DNA of 64,000 nucleotides from Verrucomicrobiota bacterium (GTDB taxonomy: Bacteria; Verrucomicrobiota; Verrucomicrobiia; Limisphaerales; SIBE01), in contig JAIPJX010000004.1 in the NCBI GenBank assembly GCA_021733945.1, positions 12,579 to 76,578 of the forward strand, written 5' to 3'. The notes under the pieces are model-generated. The model was given only the letters and a program-made list of their open reading frames with translations, was not told the origin of the DNA and made no database searches. Of the stretch, positions 22,631 through 55,850 are shown piece after piece (position 1 is the stretch's first letter; each line of letters starts with the position of its first letter). The position numbers were made by a program, and so were the translations under genes.

Positions 22631-22762
22631 GAGCGTGTCCGAAAATCAGGATCCGACGTAAGACGACTTACTTCTTCAACTGCCAGACCAGGCGATTTTC
22701 AGAGTATTTGGAACCTCGTCACCCCGGCACCTCCCATGGAATGAGAGTTTACAGACAGGCTT
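22631..22762 (+). mobile_element. IS5-like 132-bp MITE (degenerate copy)
   Basis: Colinear without gaps with 30768-30899; ends GAGCGTGTCCGAAAA ... TTTACAGACAGGCTT. Confidence 0.8.
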
Positions 22763-29529: not shown

Positions 29530-29672
29530 GAGCCTGTCTGAAAATTCTCATTCCATGGTAGGAGCCGAGGTGACGAGGCTCCAAAATTCTCTGAAAATCA
29601 CCCGGTTTGGCAGTTCAAGAAGTGGACCTAAAGAAGTGGACCTACTTACGTCGGCACCACCTTTTCACGCTC
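29530..29672 (-). mobile_element. IS5-like MITE copy (reverse) with an internal 14-bp duplication
   Basis: GAGCCTGTCTGAAAA ... TTTTCACGCTC; AAGAAGTGGACCTA twice in tandem. Confidence 0.8.
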
Positions 29673-29776
29673 CAAGAAGGCTTTGACTCTGAGGGCGTTG
29701 CGCATAAACTGCCAGCGCATCGCAGTGCCAGGCGAACTCGGGCGCATCTCAACTCGCGGTGTTGCTGGTACCAAGA

Positions 29777-30517
29777 ATGGAAAGACGGATTCTAAATGGC
29801 GGGCGGTTCGCCACAACTCAGTGGAGCATCGTCCGCACCGCGTCGTCCGCTCCGGATCCCGCGCGGCTTGATGCCCTGGATTATTTGCTCCGGTGTTATT
29901 GCCCCGCCCTGGTCGAATATGTGAAGCGCCAATTTCGATTCGATGAAGACCAGGCGAATGACATGGTTCATGGCTTTGTTGAGGACCGGGTCTTAACGAA
30001 GAATCTGCTCGCGCATGCGTCCGAGGACCGGGGGAAGTTCCGGACATTCCTTCTTCAATCGTTTCGATCGTACACTCTCGACCAGATCAGATTTAGCCAA
30101 AGGCACATACGAAGTCCCAGGGGTGGATTCACGACGTTGGACCAAGCGTGCGACGAATTTGATACGGCTAACCCACAAGATCATCAGGCAGTATTCGACG
30201 ATGGCTTTGCGCGACAAGTGATTGCCGAAGCGATTCACCGCACCCATCAGAAATGCCTGGCCGACAATGCGCCCGAAATCTGGGAGATTTTGTACGCGCG
30301 CGCGTTGGCACCGCATCTTGAGGAATTACCGCCGGAAGAATACTCGGTTCTGGCAAAGGAACTAGAACTCAAAGACATGGCGGAAGCGCACAACAAGCTG
30401 GCTTCCGGAAAACGAATGTTTAAGAAGTTTTTCAAGATGGTTGTCGAAGAATTTGCCGCTGACGAAAATGAACTCGAAGAGGAACTTCGCTATTTGAGAG
30501 GTTTTTTTGACTCCTGA
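29777..30517 (+). CDS. ECF sigma factor of the Ser/Thr-kinase-associated PVC type
   Basis: FATTQWS, ALDYLLRCY, QANDMVHGF, RGKFRTFLL, C-terminal EEELRYL. Confidence 0.85.
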   Translation: MERRILNGGRFATTQWSIVRTASSAPDPARLDALDYLLRCYCPALVEYVKRQFRFDEDQANDMVHGFVEDRVLTKNLLAHASEDRGKFRTFLLQSFRSYTLDQIRFSQRHIRSPRGGFTTLDQACDEFDTANPQDHQAVFDDGFARQVIAEAIHRTHQKCLADNAPEIWEILYARALAPHLEELPPEEYSVLAKELELKDMAEAHNKLASGKRMFKKFFKMVVEEFAADENELEEELRYLRGFFDS

Positions 30518-30545
30518 CGGCAAGATTCGCGTTTGGACGACGTAG
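30517..30545 (+). promoter_or_regulatory. Candidate ECF promoter for the kinase operon
   Basis: ACGGCAAGAT-TCGCGTTTGGA-CGACGTAG with an upstream T7 tract, 20 nt before ATG 30565. Confidence 0.65.
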
Positions 30546-30564
30546 GTACTTATAGGATCTTGCA

Positions 30565-30717
30565 ATGCCAAACAACCCGGAAGAAAAACCTGAGGAACGG
30601 GATATTCGTCATCTCGACAAAAAAAAGATGGCGGAACTCCTGAAAGACCTGATCGATAACGATGATGAAGGTGCAGAAACCGATTCGCAGCCGGATGAAC
30701 GGACCGAAGGACAATGA
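30565..30717 (+). CDS. Small acidic protein (50 aa; below the ORF-track cutoff)
   Basis: MPNNPEEKPEERDIRHLDKKKMAELLKDLIDNDDEGAETDSQPDERTEGQ*; AGGA RBS upstream. Confidence 0.65.
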   Translation: MPNNPEEKPEERDIRHLDKKKMAELLKDLIDNDDEGAETDSQPDERTEGQ

Positions 30718-30745
30718 CCTGAATTGCGCTGTTCTCTTTCCAAGA

Positions 30746-32407
30746 ATGGTTCTCCGAACTTTCCTGAGAGCGTGTCTGAAAAGGTGGAGCCAACGTAAAA
30801 AGGTTCTCTTCTTCAACTCCGAAACCGGGCGAACTCCAAAGCATTTGGAGCCTCGTCACCTCGGTTCCTACCCTGGAATGAGAGTTTTCAGACACCCTCT
30901 GAGGTTTCTCAGCCTGATCCTGCTGGTGCTGGTCTTGGGCAAATCCGATCCGTCCAATTCTCAGAACATTTCGCTTGATGAACCTGTGGAAAAGGGAGCA
31001 CCGCGGTCCTCGGACGCCGAAACGATGTTCCCGGAACCGGCCCATGATGCGGAACTCCGGCGACGCCTGGCCGGATTTCGGGAACGGATTCGCACATCCG
31101 ACCCTACAAACTCGATCCCGGACCTTGCGTTTGAAGCGCTGGGCCTGCTGAGATCGTTGGCGGGCGAACCTGTTTCGAACAATGAGTGGAACCGGCTTTT
31201 GGCTTTTCCTGAGAGCTTAAGCAATTCCATTGCCGAGCTTGAACTCGCATTAGAAGCCGAATCCGCAAAGACCGTTTTCTCAGTGATTCCCGCCACTGAC
31301 ACGACCTCGGGATTGTTGGCATTGAATCCGTGGGGAGGCATCGACCAGGAAACACACTATCAGCCTCGATTTTCTGACCTTAAATACTGGACGGGTTCCC
31401 CTGCCCTCACACCCGTGCCACCATCCCTTCACGATTCTATTCCTTCCCGATATCGACTGGCCGAAATGCTCGGGCTCGGCACAAATCAGGTTCACATCGA
31501 AGTTTTCTTCATCGATGCAAAACTCTTTACAGCCATTGATTACGGGTTCGATATCACACAGCGAATCCGGCACGACGTGACAGGATCTTTTCAGCTCCAA
31601 GAAACGGGCGTCAGCGTCGAAACATTTCGCCGAATGATCGAAAGCAAAAGCCGAATCGGCACCCGCGAGATCGATCTGGGGCCGGAGGTAAAACCGCACA
31701 AGGTGGGCTTCCGATCCATATCCACCTCAGACGCCGCGAACAGCGTCCAAGGCACACGAGCCTGGGAACAAGAACGCCTGGACCAACGTCTGGCCCTGGA
31801 ATCGCGGCCGGTCGGTCCGTCCGCAAGTCAACAAAATGACGAACACCAAAGGAATTCCGCCATCAACGAGGCCATTTCGCGCAAGCTCGAGTCCCTCCAA
31901 GAAACGGTCATCGCAGCCCAGACCCTGTTCCTCGAAGAGTCTCCAAGGGTGGAACGTTTGGACAACACGATTGCCGCCCTTCGAGACTGGGAAGCGAGTC
32001 ATTCGGATTTCCTCTCATGCCTGATTCGTCCGATGTCTCCCAGACTCATCGGCAAACAGATGCTTGAGAAACAAATTGTCGATCAAGGCAAATCCAACTC
32101 GGCGATCCAATTTGACGAATTGCTTCCGGAGCAAATCCGAGCGGCGACTCTAACCATGGCTCACGGACTCCTTCATCGAGTTCCAGAGGCGGTGCAACCG
32201 GTCGCTTTGGAGATTTTCACGGCGATGTTGCAAAACCTTCCATCGCATTCGTTATTGCCCGGGCGCAAGATCGGATATATTCCCCGCGATCCTCGTAGGA
32301 GCCGACGTAAGGAGGCTCATTCTATCCGGATCGAAGGAAGTCAGAGCCACCTCACGTCGGTTCCTACGGTTCAGAGGTTCAAAGCGCGAGAGGTTCCGAA
32401 ACGCTAG
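30746..32407 (+). CDS. Secreted/membrane-anchored hypothetical protein with an in-frame MITE and a REP-derived C-terminus
   Basis: Removing 135 bp gives the signal-like N-terminus MVLRTFLRFLSLILLVLVLG; helical body. Confidence 0.72.
   Translation: MVLRTFLRACLKRWSQRKKVLFFNSETGRTPKHLEPRHLGSYPGMRVFRHPLRFLSLILLVLVLGKSDPSNSQNISLDEPVEKGAPRSSDAETMFPEPAHDAELRRRLAGFRERIRTSDPTNSIPDLAFEALGLLRSLAGEPVSNNEWNRLLAFPESLSNSIAELELALEAESAKTVFSVIPATDTTSGLLALNPWGGIDQETHYQPRFSDLKYWTGSPALTPVPPSLHDSIPSRYRLAEMLGLGTNQVHIEVFFIDAKLFTAIDYGFDITQRIRHDVTGSFQLQETGVSVETFRRMIESKSRIGTREIDLGPEVKPHKVGFRSISTSDAANSVQGTRAWEQERLDQRLALESRPVGPSASQQNDEHQRNSAINEAISRKLESLQETVIAAQTLFLEESPRVERLDNTIAALRDWEASHSDFLSCLIRPMSPRLIGKQMLEKQIVDQGKSNSAIQFDELLPEQIRAATLTMAHGLLHRVPEAVQPVALEIFTAMLQNLPSHSLLPGRKIGYIPRDPRRSRRKEAHSIRIEGSQSHLTSVPTVQRFKAREVPKR
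30768..30899 (+). mobile_element. IS5-like 132-bp MITE with a TGA target-site duplication
   Basis: TIRs GAGCGTGTCTGAAAA / TTTTCAGACACCCTC (14/15 match); TGA at 30765-30767 and 30900-30902. Confidence 0.88.
32294..32368. repeat. REP doublet inside the 3' end of a CDS
   Basis: CGTAGGAGCCGACGTAAGGAGGCTC ... GAGCCACCTCACGTCGGTTCCTACG; same REP family as inside the IS5-like MITE. Confidence 0.8.
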
Positions 32408-32415
32408 TTCCACGC

Positions 32416-34774
32416 ATGTCTGATTCACCAGAGACATCCCCGACTGTTCGCCGCGCGTTTCCAACTTCTCGAAAAGCTCGGAGAAGGAACCGTGGCTTCG
32501 ACGTGGTTAACCCTCGATACTGTTCGCCAGGAACAAGTGATTTTAAAAATACTCCACGAAGATATCGTAAGGGACGCGGGAGGATTTGGAGGATTGAAAG
32601 AAACATTGCGATTCACATCCAGTTTTCGGCATCAATCAGTGCTTAGCGTGTTCGATTTTTCCGAGTCGGAAAATCAGGTGTATTTCAGCATGGAAACGGC
32701 CCGGGGCGAATCGGTGCGCGATCGTATCGATGCAGCGGACAAATCTGGACAACCGATCGATGCCCGCACCATCGGGAAGATCATGTCCACCCTGTTGAAC
32801 ACGATTGCCGAAGGCCGTACGAATACTTTTCCTCACGGCGGGATCAAGCCTGAGAACATCTGGATGGAGCCGAATGACCGTGTTCGGATCAGCGAATTCG
32901 GAATCAACACGCTGGCAACACCCCGGAAACTGCTTTCCACCGCAGCGATTCTTAAGACAGGCCGATACATGGCCCCTGAGATTTACAGGTCCGAATTGGA
33001 ACTTGATCACCGAACCGATCAATTTGCGATCGGCACGGTATGGTCGGAATTATTGCTCGCGGGCGGCGCGGATCCCGCCCAGCGTGTTTTGAAACACCAA
33101 CGACAGGTTATCGCGCGATTGACCGCGGTGAATCCCTCGGACCGCTTTCCGTCGTTCGACACGTTGCTCGAAACGATAAGAGATCGACAAGCGCTCTCCT
33201 TAATAATGGAATCGACTCGGGAGTGGCCTCAGCGTGTCCGCAGAATATTCACGCCGGTTCTCAGTTTGATCGCCTTGGGAAGCGCAGCTCTGTTTTATGC
33301 CAATTCCATTCGCGAGTCGGGAGTCGAGAATACCCGAGTGCTTCAGTCACAGAGTGAGTTGCGCCAGCGGATTCGAGAAGTTGAGCACAGCCGGATGAGT
33401 CTGCTCGCGGAAGGTTTTTTGATGCCAGAGGTAAGCGATGCCCTGGTCCGTTATTTCTCGGCGGACACGGAATACGAGATTCTGGAATCGCTCAGCGAGG
33501 GAACGGCAACGGACGAAAATTTCGGCTCTTCCATGAAAACCCGATTAAACGCGCGAGAGGCCAGCATTGAACTCGCCCACGGAACGATCCGCCGTTTGGG
33601 TGAGATCGAAGGTGGGTTGCAGGCGCTCGGTCGGGTTTCAGACCGGACTTCGAAAAACCACGACGGCATCCCTCTCCCAATGCAATCCCTTCTCAACCGC
33701 GCGATTGAGGAGTTCCAGAGTGGCCAGTTCCATGCGAGTTTGGAAATCAGCGAACAGCTTGTGGCCAAGATCGGCCAATTCTTTGATGACAACTGGAAAA
33801 CAGCACTGGCAAAGGCGGAAGAAAACAAATCGCAATGGAGAACCGCTTTGATTGAACATGGAATCCCCTATTCCGAACCCAACAAGAACCTCACCGGCAT
33901 TCTACTACAAATAGGATTCAGCAACATCGCTTCGACAACGGCCGACGCAATCATCCGTGCCAGGGAAGTGAGCGAGACCTTTCGAGCATGGACAACCGAG
34001 TTGGAGCAACTTCCCCGGCAACGCCCGGGTTCGTTCCGAAATAGTCTGGGAATGCTCTTTGAAACTGTCGGATCCATTCAGGTTTCCGTGTGGGAAACTC
34101 GCATTCTGGATTTCCACGCTTATGTGGAAGCCACGGGATTCGATGCGAATCGTGCTTGGAGGGAAGAAGCGGCTCTGGTTGGACCGACCCATCCGGTAAC
34201 CTCTGTCGCCCGGATCGACGGGGTCACGTTTTGCGATTGGCTCACCGGGAAAGAACACGCGATGGGAATGCTCCCAAAGCACCTGGCCTATTCATTGCCC
34301 ACGGATCTTGAATGGAGCATGTTTGCGGGATTGGAAAACGAAAGGGGCGTGCAACCGTTTCAGCGCAGCTTCGAGGCACCCAGCCTCTATCCCTGGGAAA
34401 GCGACGATCTGGTTTATTCCAACCATGGGAACTACTTCACCCCGTCCAGCGCCAATGAAAGCAATCATTTCTTTGCAATGAAGGACCGCTTTACAACCAC
34501 CGCGCCGGTCGGCCGATTCGCGCCCAATCGAAACGGCCTCCATGATCTGGGTGGCAACGTGTGGGAATGGGTTTCAACCCCCTACTTCGAAGAACCCGCC
34601 GTGCGGTACAAGGGTTCGTATATGGCCCGGGGCGGCGGGTGGCGCACGATCAATCTCGAGCAGATGAAAACCGGATACCGAATCAATCCCCCGGCAGGCC
34701 ATCAAGAGATTGGTTTTCGCTGCATCATTCGGTCGAAATCCAGAGCGACGGAAAAGCCGGACAACCCACAATGA
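32416..34774 (+). CDS. Ser/Thr pseudokinase - TM - helical region - FGE/SUMF1 domain (frameshift near the start)
   Basis: HGGIKPEN (no catalytic Asp), EFG, GEGTVA; C-terminal TAPVGRFAPNRNGLHDLGGNVWEW...RGGGW...IGFRC; ATG 32416 is one base out of frame. Confidence 0.82.
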
Positions 34775-54674: not shown

Positions 54675-55784
54675 GTGAATGCCAGGGAGGCATTGATTGC
54701 TCTGAACATGATCGAACACGTCGGACCCGTGCGCCTGCGGCAGTTGCTCGCGCACCTGGGGGATGCCCCCGCAGTGCTGTCAGCCAGCCTGCAGGCTCTG
54801 CGTCGGGTGCCCGGAATCGGCGAGGACACCGCTTCGGCCATCCACAACTGGGAAAAATCCGTGGACCTGGACGCCGAACTGCAGCGCATCACCGACTACG
54901 ACTGCCACGTCATTTCTCAATCCGATGACACCTACCCGGAGTGGCTCCGTCAGATCTACGACCCTCCCATCGTCCTGTATGTCCGGGGAACATTGACTTC
55001 AGCCGACAAAAACGGCGTTGCCCTGGTTGGTTCGCGCATGACCACCCACTACGGGATCGAGACAGCCCGGAAACTTGCTCATCAATTGGCAAATCTCGGC
55101 GTTACCGTGGTGAGTGGAGGGGCCCGGGGAATCGACACGGCCGCCCATCAGGGCGCCCTCAGCGCCGGAGGCAGAACCATCGCGGTGCTCGGAACGGGCA
55201 TCAACCTGGTTTTTCCGCCCGAGAACCGGAGCCTTTTCGACCGGATCCCGGCCAGCGGTGCGCTTCTCACTCAATTCCCATTCAACCGCACGGCGGATCG
55301 CCAATCCTTTCCCATTCGGAACCGGATTGTCGCCGGGATGACCCTCGGAACGGTGGTGGTCGAAGCCAACCTGACGAGCGGCGCACTGATCACCGCGAAT
55401 ATGGCCTTGGATGCCGGACGCCAGGTGTTTGCCGTTCCAGGCCGGGTTGATTCGCCCCGAAGCAAAGGCTGCCATGAATTGATCAAGAAAGGAGCCAAAC
55501 TATGCGAATGCGCGGAGGATATCCTCACTGAATTCGAATACCTGTTCCCTGGCTCCAATCGTTCCGGAGATTCTCCGGCCATCGGATTCGACCCAACCCC
55601 GACCCTTTCCGAAGTGGAACGGACCATCCACGACGCATTGGAGCTCGATCCCGTCACGATCGATCAGGTAATCCAGTCCACCGGACTGACCAGTTCACAA
55701 GTCTCCGTTGCGTTGCTGAACCTTGAGATGAAGCGTTTGGTTCAATCATTGCCGGGCAAACGATACCTGAGAACCCGTGCTTAA
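54675..55784 (+). CDS. dprA: DNA-processing protein DprA
   Basis: LVGSR, VVSGGARGIDTAAH, FPIRNRIVAG, FAVPG, C-terminal winged helix. Confidence 0.95.
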   Translation: MNAREALIALNMIEHVGPVRLRQLLAHLGDAPAVLSASLQALRRVPGIGEDTASAIHNWEKSVDLDAELQRITDYDCHVISQSDDTYPEWLRQIYDPPIVLYVRGTLTSADKNGVALVGSRMTTHYGIETARKLAHQLANLGVTVVSGGARGIDTAAHQGALSAGGRTIAVLGTGINLVFPPENRSLFDRIPASGALLTQFPFNRTADRQSFPIRNRIVAGMTLGTVVVEANLTSGALITANMALDAGRQVFAVPGRVDSPRSKGCHELIKKGAKLCECAEDILTEFEYLFPGSNRSGDSPAIGFDPTPTLSEVERTIHDALELDPVTIDQVIQSTGLTSSQVSVALLNLEMKRLVQSLPGKRYLRTRA

Positions 55785-55785
55785 A

Positions 55786-55850
55786 AGGCGTGCCTGAAAA
55801 GCAGGAGCCGACGTAAGAAGGTTCACTTCAATGAAAGCAACGGTTCGAAG
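55786..55850 (+). mobile_element. Truncated left end of the IS5-like MITE
   Basis: AGGCGTGCCTGAAAAGCAGGAGCCGACGTAAGAAGGTTCACTTC resembles 30768-30815. Confidence 0.55.

Follow-up and report, generated by a model that had tools for sequence, protein, structure and literature searches.

A miniature IS5-family-like element in frame within the predicted signal-peptide region of a verrucomicrobial gene

Transposable elements of the miniature inverted-repeat type (MITEs) and palindromic repeats lying in frame within the genes of bacteria have been described in Rickettsia, Coxiella, enterobacteria and cyanobacteria, where the tolerated sites are usually surface loops or C-termini. Here, we describe a 132-bp MITE that lies in frame close to the 5' end of a gene from a verrucomicrobial genome (GenBank assembly GCA_021733945.1), between a short N-terminus and the hydrophobic core of a predicted signal peptide. 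The gene is located in a 64,000-nucleotide stretch of contig JAIPJX010000004.1 (positions 12,579–76,578), referred to below as the window; coordinates given without a contig name are window positions. That a bacterial gene can carry an in-frame MITE is already known, and it is the site, the n-region of a signal peptide, that is added here. The n-region of a Sec signal peptide is positively charged, lies on the cytoplasmic side and is removed together with the signal peptide.

In the accessible text of a review, in-frame MITE fusions are described as 'not unusual', with the Rickettsia palindromic elements (RPEs) as the extreme case (PMC10969869). As far as the available parts of the two sources describe them, RPEs are palindromic elements of about 100–150 bp that are read in frame, encode a family-specific peptide, occupy permissive sites and spare the host protein (PMC10969869, PMC3733652), and in all of these respects the window MITE is like them. 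It differs in architecture, possessing terminal inverted repeats of the insertion-sequence (IS) type, a 3-bp TNA target-site duplication (TSD) and a cognate IS5-family transposase. Its host also differs, being a free-living freshwater lineage whose genome, at more than 5 Mb, is not of the reduced intracellular type, and its three in-frame full copies all fall in predicted signal-peptide n-regions, which would be removed from the mature protein, rather than in surface loops. The QMITE1 and QMITE2 elements of Coxiella burnetii are likewise MITEs coding for basic peptides; they overlap functional genes at their ends, in some cases contributing C-terminal residues together with a stop codon, and the authors regard protein termini as tolerant (PMC5896051). 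In the parts of that paper available to us, functional genes are affected at the 3' end only, whereas here the N-terminal signal peptide appears as a second tolerated site and the duplicated target of 19 of 49 full copies is the stop codon itself. The word 'signal' is absent from the texts of both papers to the extent available (PMC10969869, PMC5896051), as are 'N-termin' and 'start codon' from the latter, and a literature search that had most subscription journals outside its reach returned no account of a signal peptide carrying a MITE in its n-region or of a MITE family concentrated at stop codons. A third class of permissive site would be formed by the n-region of cleavable signal peptides, as predicted here three times in one genome and in the same frame.

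The host open reading frame (ORF) occupies 30746–32407 on the forward strand (553 codons plus stop) and encodes a function-unassigned protein that has an N-terminal signal-peptide-like segment and for which no Pfam family was matched. Its likeliest ancestral start is the ATG at 30746–30748, the nearest in-frame start 5' of the insertion site, which opens the sequence MVLRTFL. The MITE sits after codon 7: the left TSD copy (TGA, 30765–30767, read cTG Aga in the host frame) is followed by the MITE itself (30768–30899, forward orientation, 86% identical to the family majority consensus) and the right TSD copy (TGA, 30900–30902). The ends of the element carry the terminal inverted repeats GAGCGTGTCTGAAAA (30768–30782, forward strand) and GAGGGTGTCTGAAAA (30885–30899, read on the reverse strand), and these ends are conserved among the aligned copies. 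Searched with up to two mismatches, the terminal motif has four matches in the window against 0.22 expected, a number reached in none of 100 shuffles. The host frame runs without a stop from MVLRTFL through an arginine and the element-coded residues to RFLSLILLVLVLG, reading RFLSLILLVLVLGKSDP downstream of the second TGA. The target, C-TGA-G, is formed by codons 7 and 8 (CTG AGG, Leu-Arg), and the element plus one TGA amounts to 135 bp or 45 stop-free codons, as the original prediction had stated and as our reading of the window confirms.

The signal-like layout, in which an uncharged hydrophobic core succeeds a positively charged n-region, was recognized with a script of our own rather than with a trained predictor. 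The core, FLSLILLVLVLG (30905–30940, forward strand), comprises 12 uncharged residues with a mean Kyte–Doolittle value of 3.11, and the V-L-G that precedes KSDP looks compatible, by eye, with the small-residue rule for cleavage. The 45 element-coded residues include 11 lysines and arginines against one or two acidic residues. Public gene calls give the protein a longer, 581-residue frame that starts at 30662. This call probably reflects a preference for the longest ORF, which the open frame of the MITE made available; genes of this kind are extended by gene callers as far as the frame allows, and signal-peptide predictors would probably miss a core that begins at residue 54.

The window gene is not the only one of its kind. 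Every frame running through a MITE copy in the assembly was collected and compared with Pfam, and this screen yielded two parallel cases. In a sulfatase gene (contig C209) the frame reads MNRIP, then the MITE, then GPLFAKSSLCLLLLFLAAARPAIGA, with the Pfam Sulfatase domain starting at residue 80; in an α/β-hydrolase gene (contig C81) it reads MKIRMILR, the MITE and LAGVVAGLLLPHLAAAP. Both elements have the same orientation and codon phase as that of the window gene and both lie between a short N-terminus and a hydrophobic core. The MITE-free orthologues from a genome of the same genus (G001) begin MNSIKRSSLLLSVFGFALL for the sulfatase (81% identity) and MNRFYTLTLLVAAMLF for the hydrolase (78% identity), and the pre-MITE residues MNRIP of the sulfatase resemble its orthologue's start, MNSIK. 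In the other homologues that were read upstream (six for the sulfatase, two for the hydrolase) an ATG lies 9–36 codons before the aligned part and the n-regions are short. With the MITE, the n-regions of the three genes measure 53, 56 and 50 residues, with net charges of +11, +12 and +13; without it, the same genes in the same order would have n-regions of 8, 11 and 4 residues with net charges of +2, +3 and +2, the hydrophobic cores being unchanged. The call for a genome-wide count of in-frame copies is answered by three full copies in predicted signal-peptide n-regions, while the search for an empty site that accompanied it brought none to light.

Two of these genes bear directly on where translation begins. 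From the start of the MITE in the sulfatase to about 65 residues past it, which is already within the catalytic domain, no ATG, GTG or TTG occurs; in the hydrolase, the earliest such codon downstream of the MITE is a TTG within the hydrophobic core. Both genes are consequently either read from the old ATG through the element or dead. Their ORFs are intact (508 codons in the sulfatase and 289 in the hydrolase), the MITE copies being 8% and 10% off consensus, and read-through from the original ATG, giving a basic n-region of 50–56 residues, is probably tolerated in both, as judged from their sequences.

These observations lead us to favour, with moderate confidence, a tolerated in-frame insertion in the n-region of a signal peptide that is still read from the old ATG. 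A non-autonomous IS5-family (IS1031-like) MITE would have transposed into the signal peptide of a gene for a predicted exported protein. The 135-bp addition keeps the frame and, in this orientation and phase, would encode a stop-free and strongly basic peptide, so that the insertion would merely stretch the n-region from 8 to 53 residues and leave the hydrophobic core and the mature protein untouched. As the n-region would remain in the cytoplasm and be discarded with the signal peptide, the insertion may have been nearly neutral and could have gone to fixation. Translation would most likely still proceed from the ATG at 30746 through the MITE, with a second ATG at 30878 as a possible but unneeded additional start. 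Export, cleavage and the start in use are what we infer; if the read-through form is indeed exported, Sec signal peptides would tolerate n-regions of 50 residues with a net charge above +10.

The second ATG (30878–30880, forward strand) lies in the right end of the MITE, where the in-frame sequence MRVFRHPLR that the original prediction had reported is indeed encoded just before the hydrophobic core. A possible, if rather unlikely, alternative is that the insertion cut the old start off from the core and that translation now begins here, with MRVFRHPLR in place of the former n-region. The nine residues and net charge of +3 that this start would provide are close to the eight residues and +2 deduced for the uninterrupted gene, and the ATG is kept in both of the related public proteins described below. 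It belongs to a subfamily variant, AATGAGAG, that makes up a minority of the family, so that its presence at this copy could reflect selection; the variant is nevertheless found, by eye, in about ten of 54 aligned copies, mostly outside genes, and did not arise at the window copy. Against the replacement of the start stand the sulfatase and hydrolase genes, which have the MITE at the same position and intact ORFs with no internal start in or just after it, showing that tolerance does not depend on such a start. All three lineages in which the insertion was seen have, moreover, kept the upstream ATG and the 45-codon frame in its entirety. In the predicted RNA fold (30730–30930) the internal ATG sits at the foot of the terminal-repeat hairpin, but with a z score of −1.9 against shuffled sequences the fold is too weak to decide the start. 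By reading, no Shine–Dalgarno-like motif precedes either ATG (30746 or 30878), and no σ70-like promoter was found within the MITE. The claim that the element supplies a replacement start is thus neither demonstrated nor needed.

The insertion is not confined to the sequenced assembly. A 5318-nucleotide contig from an independent aquatic DNA run spans 30300–31500, MITE included, with 16 differences, and contigs from two further studies run into the MITE or break within it. When the element-coded peptide was compared with longer public proteins, P0001 and P0003 were the only ones returned, and both represent the same gene. P0001 is 96% identical, whereas P0003 matches at 131 of 150 positions over mature residues 101–250; both retain the MITE, both ATGs and the open frame (581 residues in P0001 and 256, a fragment-like length, in P0003), and the element-coded part is identical at 42 of 45 positions in each. 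These are the public calls with the longer frame noted above; they begin at the far-upstream ATG of the 30662–30745 stretch, which overlaps a 50-codon ORF. The insertion is therefore old, is fixed where it was sampled and is present in several populations.

These data also bear on the proposal that the window gene and its two sister genes have been inactivated or their products mislocalized, and that all three are young pseudogenes that have yet to decay. Direct protein evidence is absent, the orthologue in G001 lacks a signal peptide and the kinase gene downstream of the window gene looks frameshifted at its 5' end, which would allow for decay of the operon. On the other hand, the 553-codon ORF and the frame of P0001 are intact, P0003 is conserved over its mature part to the extent given above and the insertion occurs in contigs of three independent DNA studies. 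The three MITE copies are 8–14% off the family majority consensus while their host ORFs (289–508 codons) are still open, a comparison in which the factor for the rate of stop formation is a rough assumption, and all three lie at one place and in one frame that spares the mature protein, as selection on function predicts. We therefore regard inactivation as highly improbable.

How much weight the open frame itself can bear is a matter of base composition. At a GC content of 59%, 46% of random 46-codon genomic windows are free of stops, so 45 stop-free codons are unremarkable and composition gives no sign of an unusual coding tolerance. Among the 49 full copies of the family, the frame used here, RACLKSRSRRKK... 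in the plus orientation, is open in 31 and one acidic frame on the other strand in 22, whereas each of the remaining four is open in only two to six; the acidic frame is used in none of the three signal-peptide cases. By a rough estimate, about one in five random intragenic insertions would leave the host frame open. What does rise above chance is the repeat family, its TNA TSDs and the recurrence at one place in three signal peptides. The notion of a coding-tolerant MITE accordingly gains from the two further genes in which the element is in frame, but the pattern speaks of survivorship rather than design.

The frequency of open frames also gives some room to the reading that MVLRTFL is a chance translation of a 5' untranslated region, with the true start elsewhere, for example at a non-canonical codon right behind the MITE or at a GTG or TTG inside the hydrophobic stretch, and many copies do lie just upstream of genes with stop-to-stop frames running through them (NTP-transferase, aminotransferase and DUF6600 genes). 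Between the MITE and the end of the core, however, ATG, GTG or TTG codons are limited to one GTG and one TTG, both within the core itself, and a start at either would destroy it. The arrangement recurs at the sulfatase, with its MNRIP resembling the MNSIK of the orthologue, and a homologue of the window gene in a second relative (G005, 34% identical) carries a comparable short signal peptide that starts at a GTG, IRQRFLACLLAISLVLQVSS. We give this reading very little credence.

Orthologues of the window gene were found in G001 (66% identity) and G005 only, among 40 relatives and 12 genomes of the family, and in each the gene is followed by the same kinase gene. The expectation that MITE-free orthologues would show a contiguous start finds support in the GTG-started peptide of G005 but not in G001, where the N-terminus of the closest MITE-free orthologue defies alignment. 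For the window gene, the ancestral start is accordingly deduced from the local reading, from G005 and from analogy with the sister genes, no empty site being at hand. Upstream of the G001 orthologue there is a 27-codon ORF in another frame whose end overlaps, in an ATGA, a possible start that reads MRGNG. This upstream DNA was considered as an empty site and rejected, as it does not align with the window beyond FPEPAHDAE.

A number of points weigh against the explanation favoured above. The G001 orthologue has no in-frame hydrophobic stretch in its unalignable N-terminal part, and its contig ends about 250 nucleotides upstream; on the present data the predicted signal peptide is not conserved across the genus. 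No empty-site allele was seen, a scan of metagenome contigs with the mature protein having found no relative, and the contigs of four runs over 30300–31500 contain no joint across the MITE. Such an absence from the searches does not show that empty alleles do not exist, but it means that the ancestral state of the window gene is inferred and unseen. In P0003, the element-coded part is no more diverged than the mature part (42/45 against 131/150), which fits translation, constraint at the RNA level or chance. The TSDs of the sister genes are degraded (CGA/TGG in the sulfatase and GAA/TCG in the hydrolase), so that it is the alignment and the orthologues that mark them as simple insertions. RNA-library contigs cover 30501–30781, including the upstream ATG, and 31148–31407; these could be contaminating DNA and cannot show where a transcript starts. 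Finally, the assembly (5.4 Mb in 225 contigs) is 90% complete, which makes all copy numbers lower bounds.

The family to which the element belongs was delineated with a profile built from 54 near-full copies. An nhmmer search of the assembly with this profile gave 144 matches, of which 63 extend to both ends and 49 represent the main family in full. The commonest length is 132 bp (27 of the 63 end-to-end matches); as 132 + 3 bp is the modal size, preservation of the frame is a property of the family and not of the window copy. Perfect 3-bp TSDs flank 16 of the 63 (TGA in eight, TTA in three, TCA and TAA in two each and CTA in one), and many of the remainder differ by a single base. Among the 49 full copies, the TSD is preceded by C in 28 and by T in 16 and followed by G in 30 and by A in 12, from which the target can be written as Y-TNA-R. 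With its terminal inverted repeats, 3-bp TNA TSDs, dispersed copies and a length too short for a transposase, the family is a MITE family. The window holds the three further copies that had been reported: a full 132-bp copy (22631–22762, forward), intergenic and 62 bp upstream of an SMP-30/gluconolactonase gene; an incomplete copy that is oriented the other way (about 29530–29657, reverse), intergenic between divergent genes; and a truncated copy (about 55785–55829, forward) in which the TAA TSD (55782–55784) coincides with the dprA stop codon. With the element-coded peptide as the query, 61 matches were obtained in the assembly, one in G001 and one, weak, in a third relative (G006), and the 38 remaining relatives of this search gave none; beyond this lineage the family is nearly absent.

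Such a position on a stop codon is common in the family. For 19 of the 49 full copies, an ORF of at least 150 codons terminates on the TSD or within one base of it: its stop codon falls exactly on the TSD in 13, one base further out in two and, in four, as a TAG composed of the last two bases of the TSD and the first G of the element. Fifteen of these ORFs belong to Pfam families (PriA, PurK, PyrF, TsaD, MazG, tannase, M42 peptidase, ABC-F, Hsp70-like, PSCyt2/PSD1, Calx-beta, Ig_3, kinase-WD40 and two FG-GAP proteins), three do not and one was untested. In three more cases, those of Lnt, an FG-GAP/ASPIC protein and a CBM48/α-amylase protein, the ORF ends 9–28 bases inside the MITE. The orientation of the element relative to the gene is unbiased (11 the same, eight opposite). 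A crude null model, in which insertions are spread evenly over those Y-TNA-R sites that are intergenic or on stop codons in our own ORF map, expects 10.8% of copies on stops, with binomial tails of 0.0017 for 13 of 49 and 3 × 10^−7 for 19 of 49. Either an insertion preference or selection against insertions in promoters could produce this excess. Under the explanation favoured above, the same survival filter would act throughout the genome, leaving copies at stop codons, which a TNA TSD regenerates, at extreme 3' ends and between genes; signal-peptide n-regions and stop codons together could then explain how a transposon that targets TNA persists where, by the crude ORF map, about 90% of the genome is coding.

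A stronger proposal is that the MITE is a 'terminus-compatible' transposon, in which the Y-TNA-R target regenerates stop codons, the basic stop-free frame extends n-regions and the subfamily ATG re-creates an N-terminus. We consider this doubtful. Were it true, such an element could spread in a gene-dense genome at almost no cost, and a strong hairpin at the 5' end of messages for exported proteins could tune their translation or export.

Several other candidates from the screen of frames were set aside. Of 37 read-through ORFs tested against Pfam, 32 have no family and read like shadow frames. In the NTP-transferase, DUF6600 and aminotransferase read-throughs the MITE lies, by reading, upstream of the likely true start. 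An apparently disrupted 845-codon gene on contig C129, suggested by excision in silico, is actually a tannase gene that ends at the TSD, followed by the antisense frame of a UDG gene.

A candidate parent of the MITE was found outside the assembly. The terminal motif, with at most one mismatch, is present in 37 of 121 genomes of the same order, in several of them with matches at contig ends. In one (G108; L151:463–1431), two inverted copies 969 bp apart frame an ORF of 273 residues; the repeats are perfect over 23 bp and start with the 15 end bases of the MITE, and the TSD is TTA. The ORF encodes a transposase that matches DUF4096 (2.5 × 10^−26), DDE_Tnp_1 (1.3 × 10^−29) and DDE_Tnp_1_2 (4.1 × 10^−17), and in another genome (G082; L153) the same transposase is split into two ORFs. 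In the MITE-bearing assembly, 90% complete, a tblastn-type search with the G108 transposase and searches for PF13586, PF13340 and PF13359 were negative, and no full-length IS was found, with five pairs of terminal repeats 300–3000 bp apart left uninspected. Of these five, the pairs of 439 and 458 bp join neighbouring MITE copies and that of 1370 bp joins two copies of the window; the one DDE_Tnp_1 match lies in a frame of 471 codons.

The IS1031 subgroup is characterized, in the available part of one source, by a TNA target with an exclusive 3-bp repeat (PMC12016507). Members such as ISLrh, as described there, resemble the present elements in this TSD, in an IS length of about 0.86–0.97 kb and in having one or two overlapping transposase ORFs, and the terminal repeat of ISLrh shares, by eye, a GA-C-TGTCT pattern with the window MITE (PMC12016507). 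An IS5/IS1031 origin, which had been suggested from the ends and TSD of the MITE, is thus supported by an IS with matching ends and an IS5-type transposase, the putative placement in IS1031 drawing on the TNA TSD and the size of the IS. The window element differs from such ISs in being a 132-bp non-autonomous form and in its interior, which is a long GTAG-type palindrome and not a deleted transposase gene.

This inner palindrome starts GTAGGAGCCGACG and ends CCTAC. Shorter repeats of the genome likewise start GTAGG and end CCTAC, and both recall the GTAG-tagged repetitive extragenic palindromic (REP) sequences; in the accessible part of their description, REPs occur inside genes and GTAG repeats are abundant in the verrucomicrobium Opitutus terrae (PMC3733652). 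The likeness is one of tag; compared with the GTAG REPs described in that part of the source, the elements here are longer (75–95 bp) and the palindrome of the MITE is framed by IS5-type ends and a TNA TSD (PMC3733652). One such repeat, of about 79 bp (GTAGG...CCTAC, 32292–32370), has the same core as the MITE interior and lies in frame in the C-terminal tail of the host ORF. The G001 orthologue ends about 55 residues earlier, while the 8-nucleotide gap to the ATG of the kinase gene is identical in both genomes, so this repeat seems to have extended the host ORF.

The 63 end-to-end matches include about 12 copies of a second MITE family with the same core but other ends. It is about 118 bp long (e.g. 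C63:36667–36784 and C7:19130–19247), with ends CAGCCCGTTAAAAAAG and CTA- or CTAG-like flanks; the inner GTAGGAGCCGACGTAAG core that the 118-bp and 132-bp families have in common suggests an exchange of modules between repeat families. The core palindrome is also in frame in two Ser/Thr kinase domains (C134:31479–31565, L093, and C215:18011–18109, L095), its stems being perfect over about 22 bp. The copy in the C134 kinase corresponds to a loop of variable length and sequence in the orthologues from three other genomes, none of which offers a clean empty site.

The surroundings of the window gene have features of their own. Between a sigma-like gene and the MITE-bearing gene lies the 50-codon ORF already mentioned (30565–30717, forward), which is acidic, has no Pfam match and is covered by an RNA-library contig. 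Downstream, the conserved partner is a Ser/Thr kinase gene with an FGE-sulfatase domain (32416–34774, forward). Its 5' end (32416–32495) reads MSDSPETSP in one frame and LFAARFQLLEKLGEGTVASTW in another, where G001 has the single-frame sequence MPDSPNPRQLFATRFELVEKLGEGTVASTW; the next in-frame start, a GTG at 32492, would lose the glycine-rich loop. This frameshift could be an assembly error at a run of C or a real lesion. The order of sigma-like gene without a Pfam match, small ORF, predicted exported protein and kinase with FGE-sulfatase domain (29759–34774; L032, L033) is kept in G005 and partly in G001, and this conservation of gene order suggests a signalling module.

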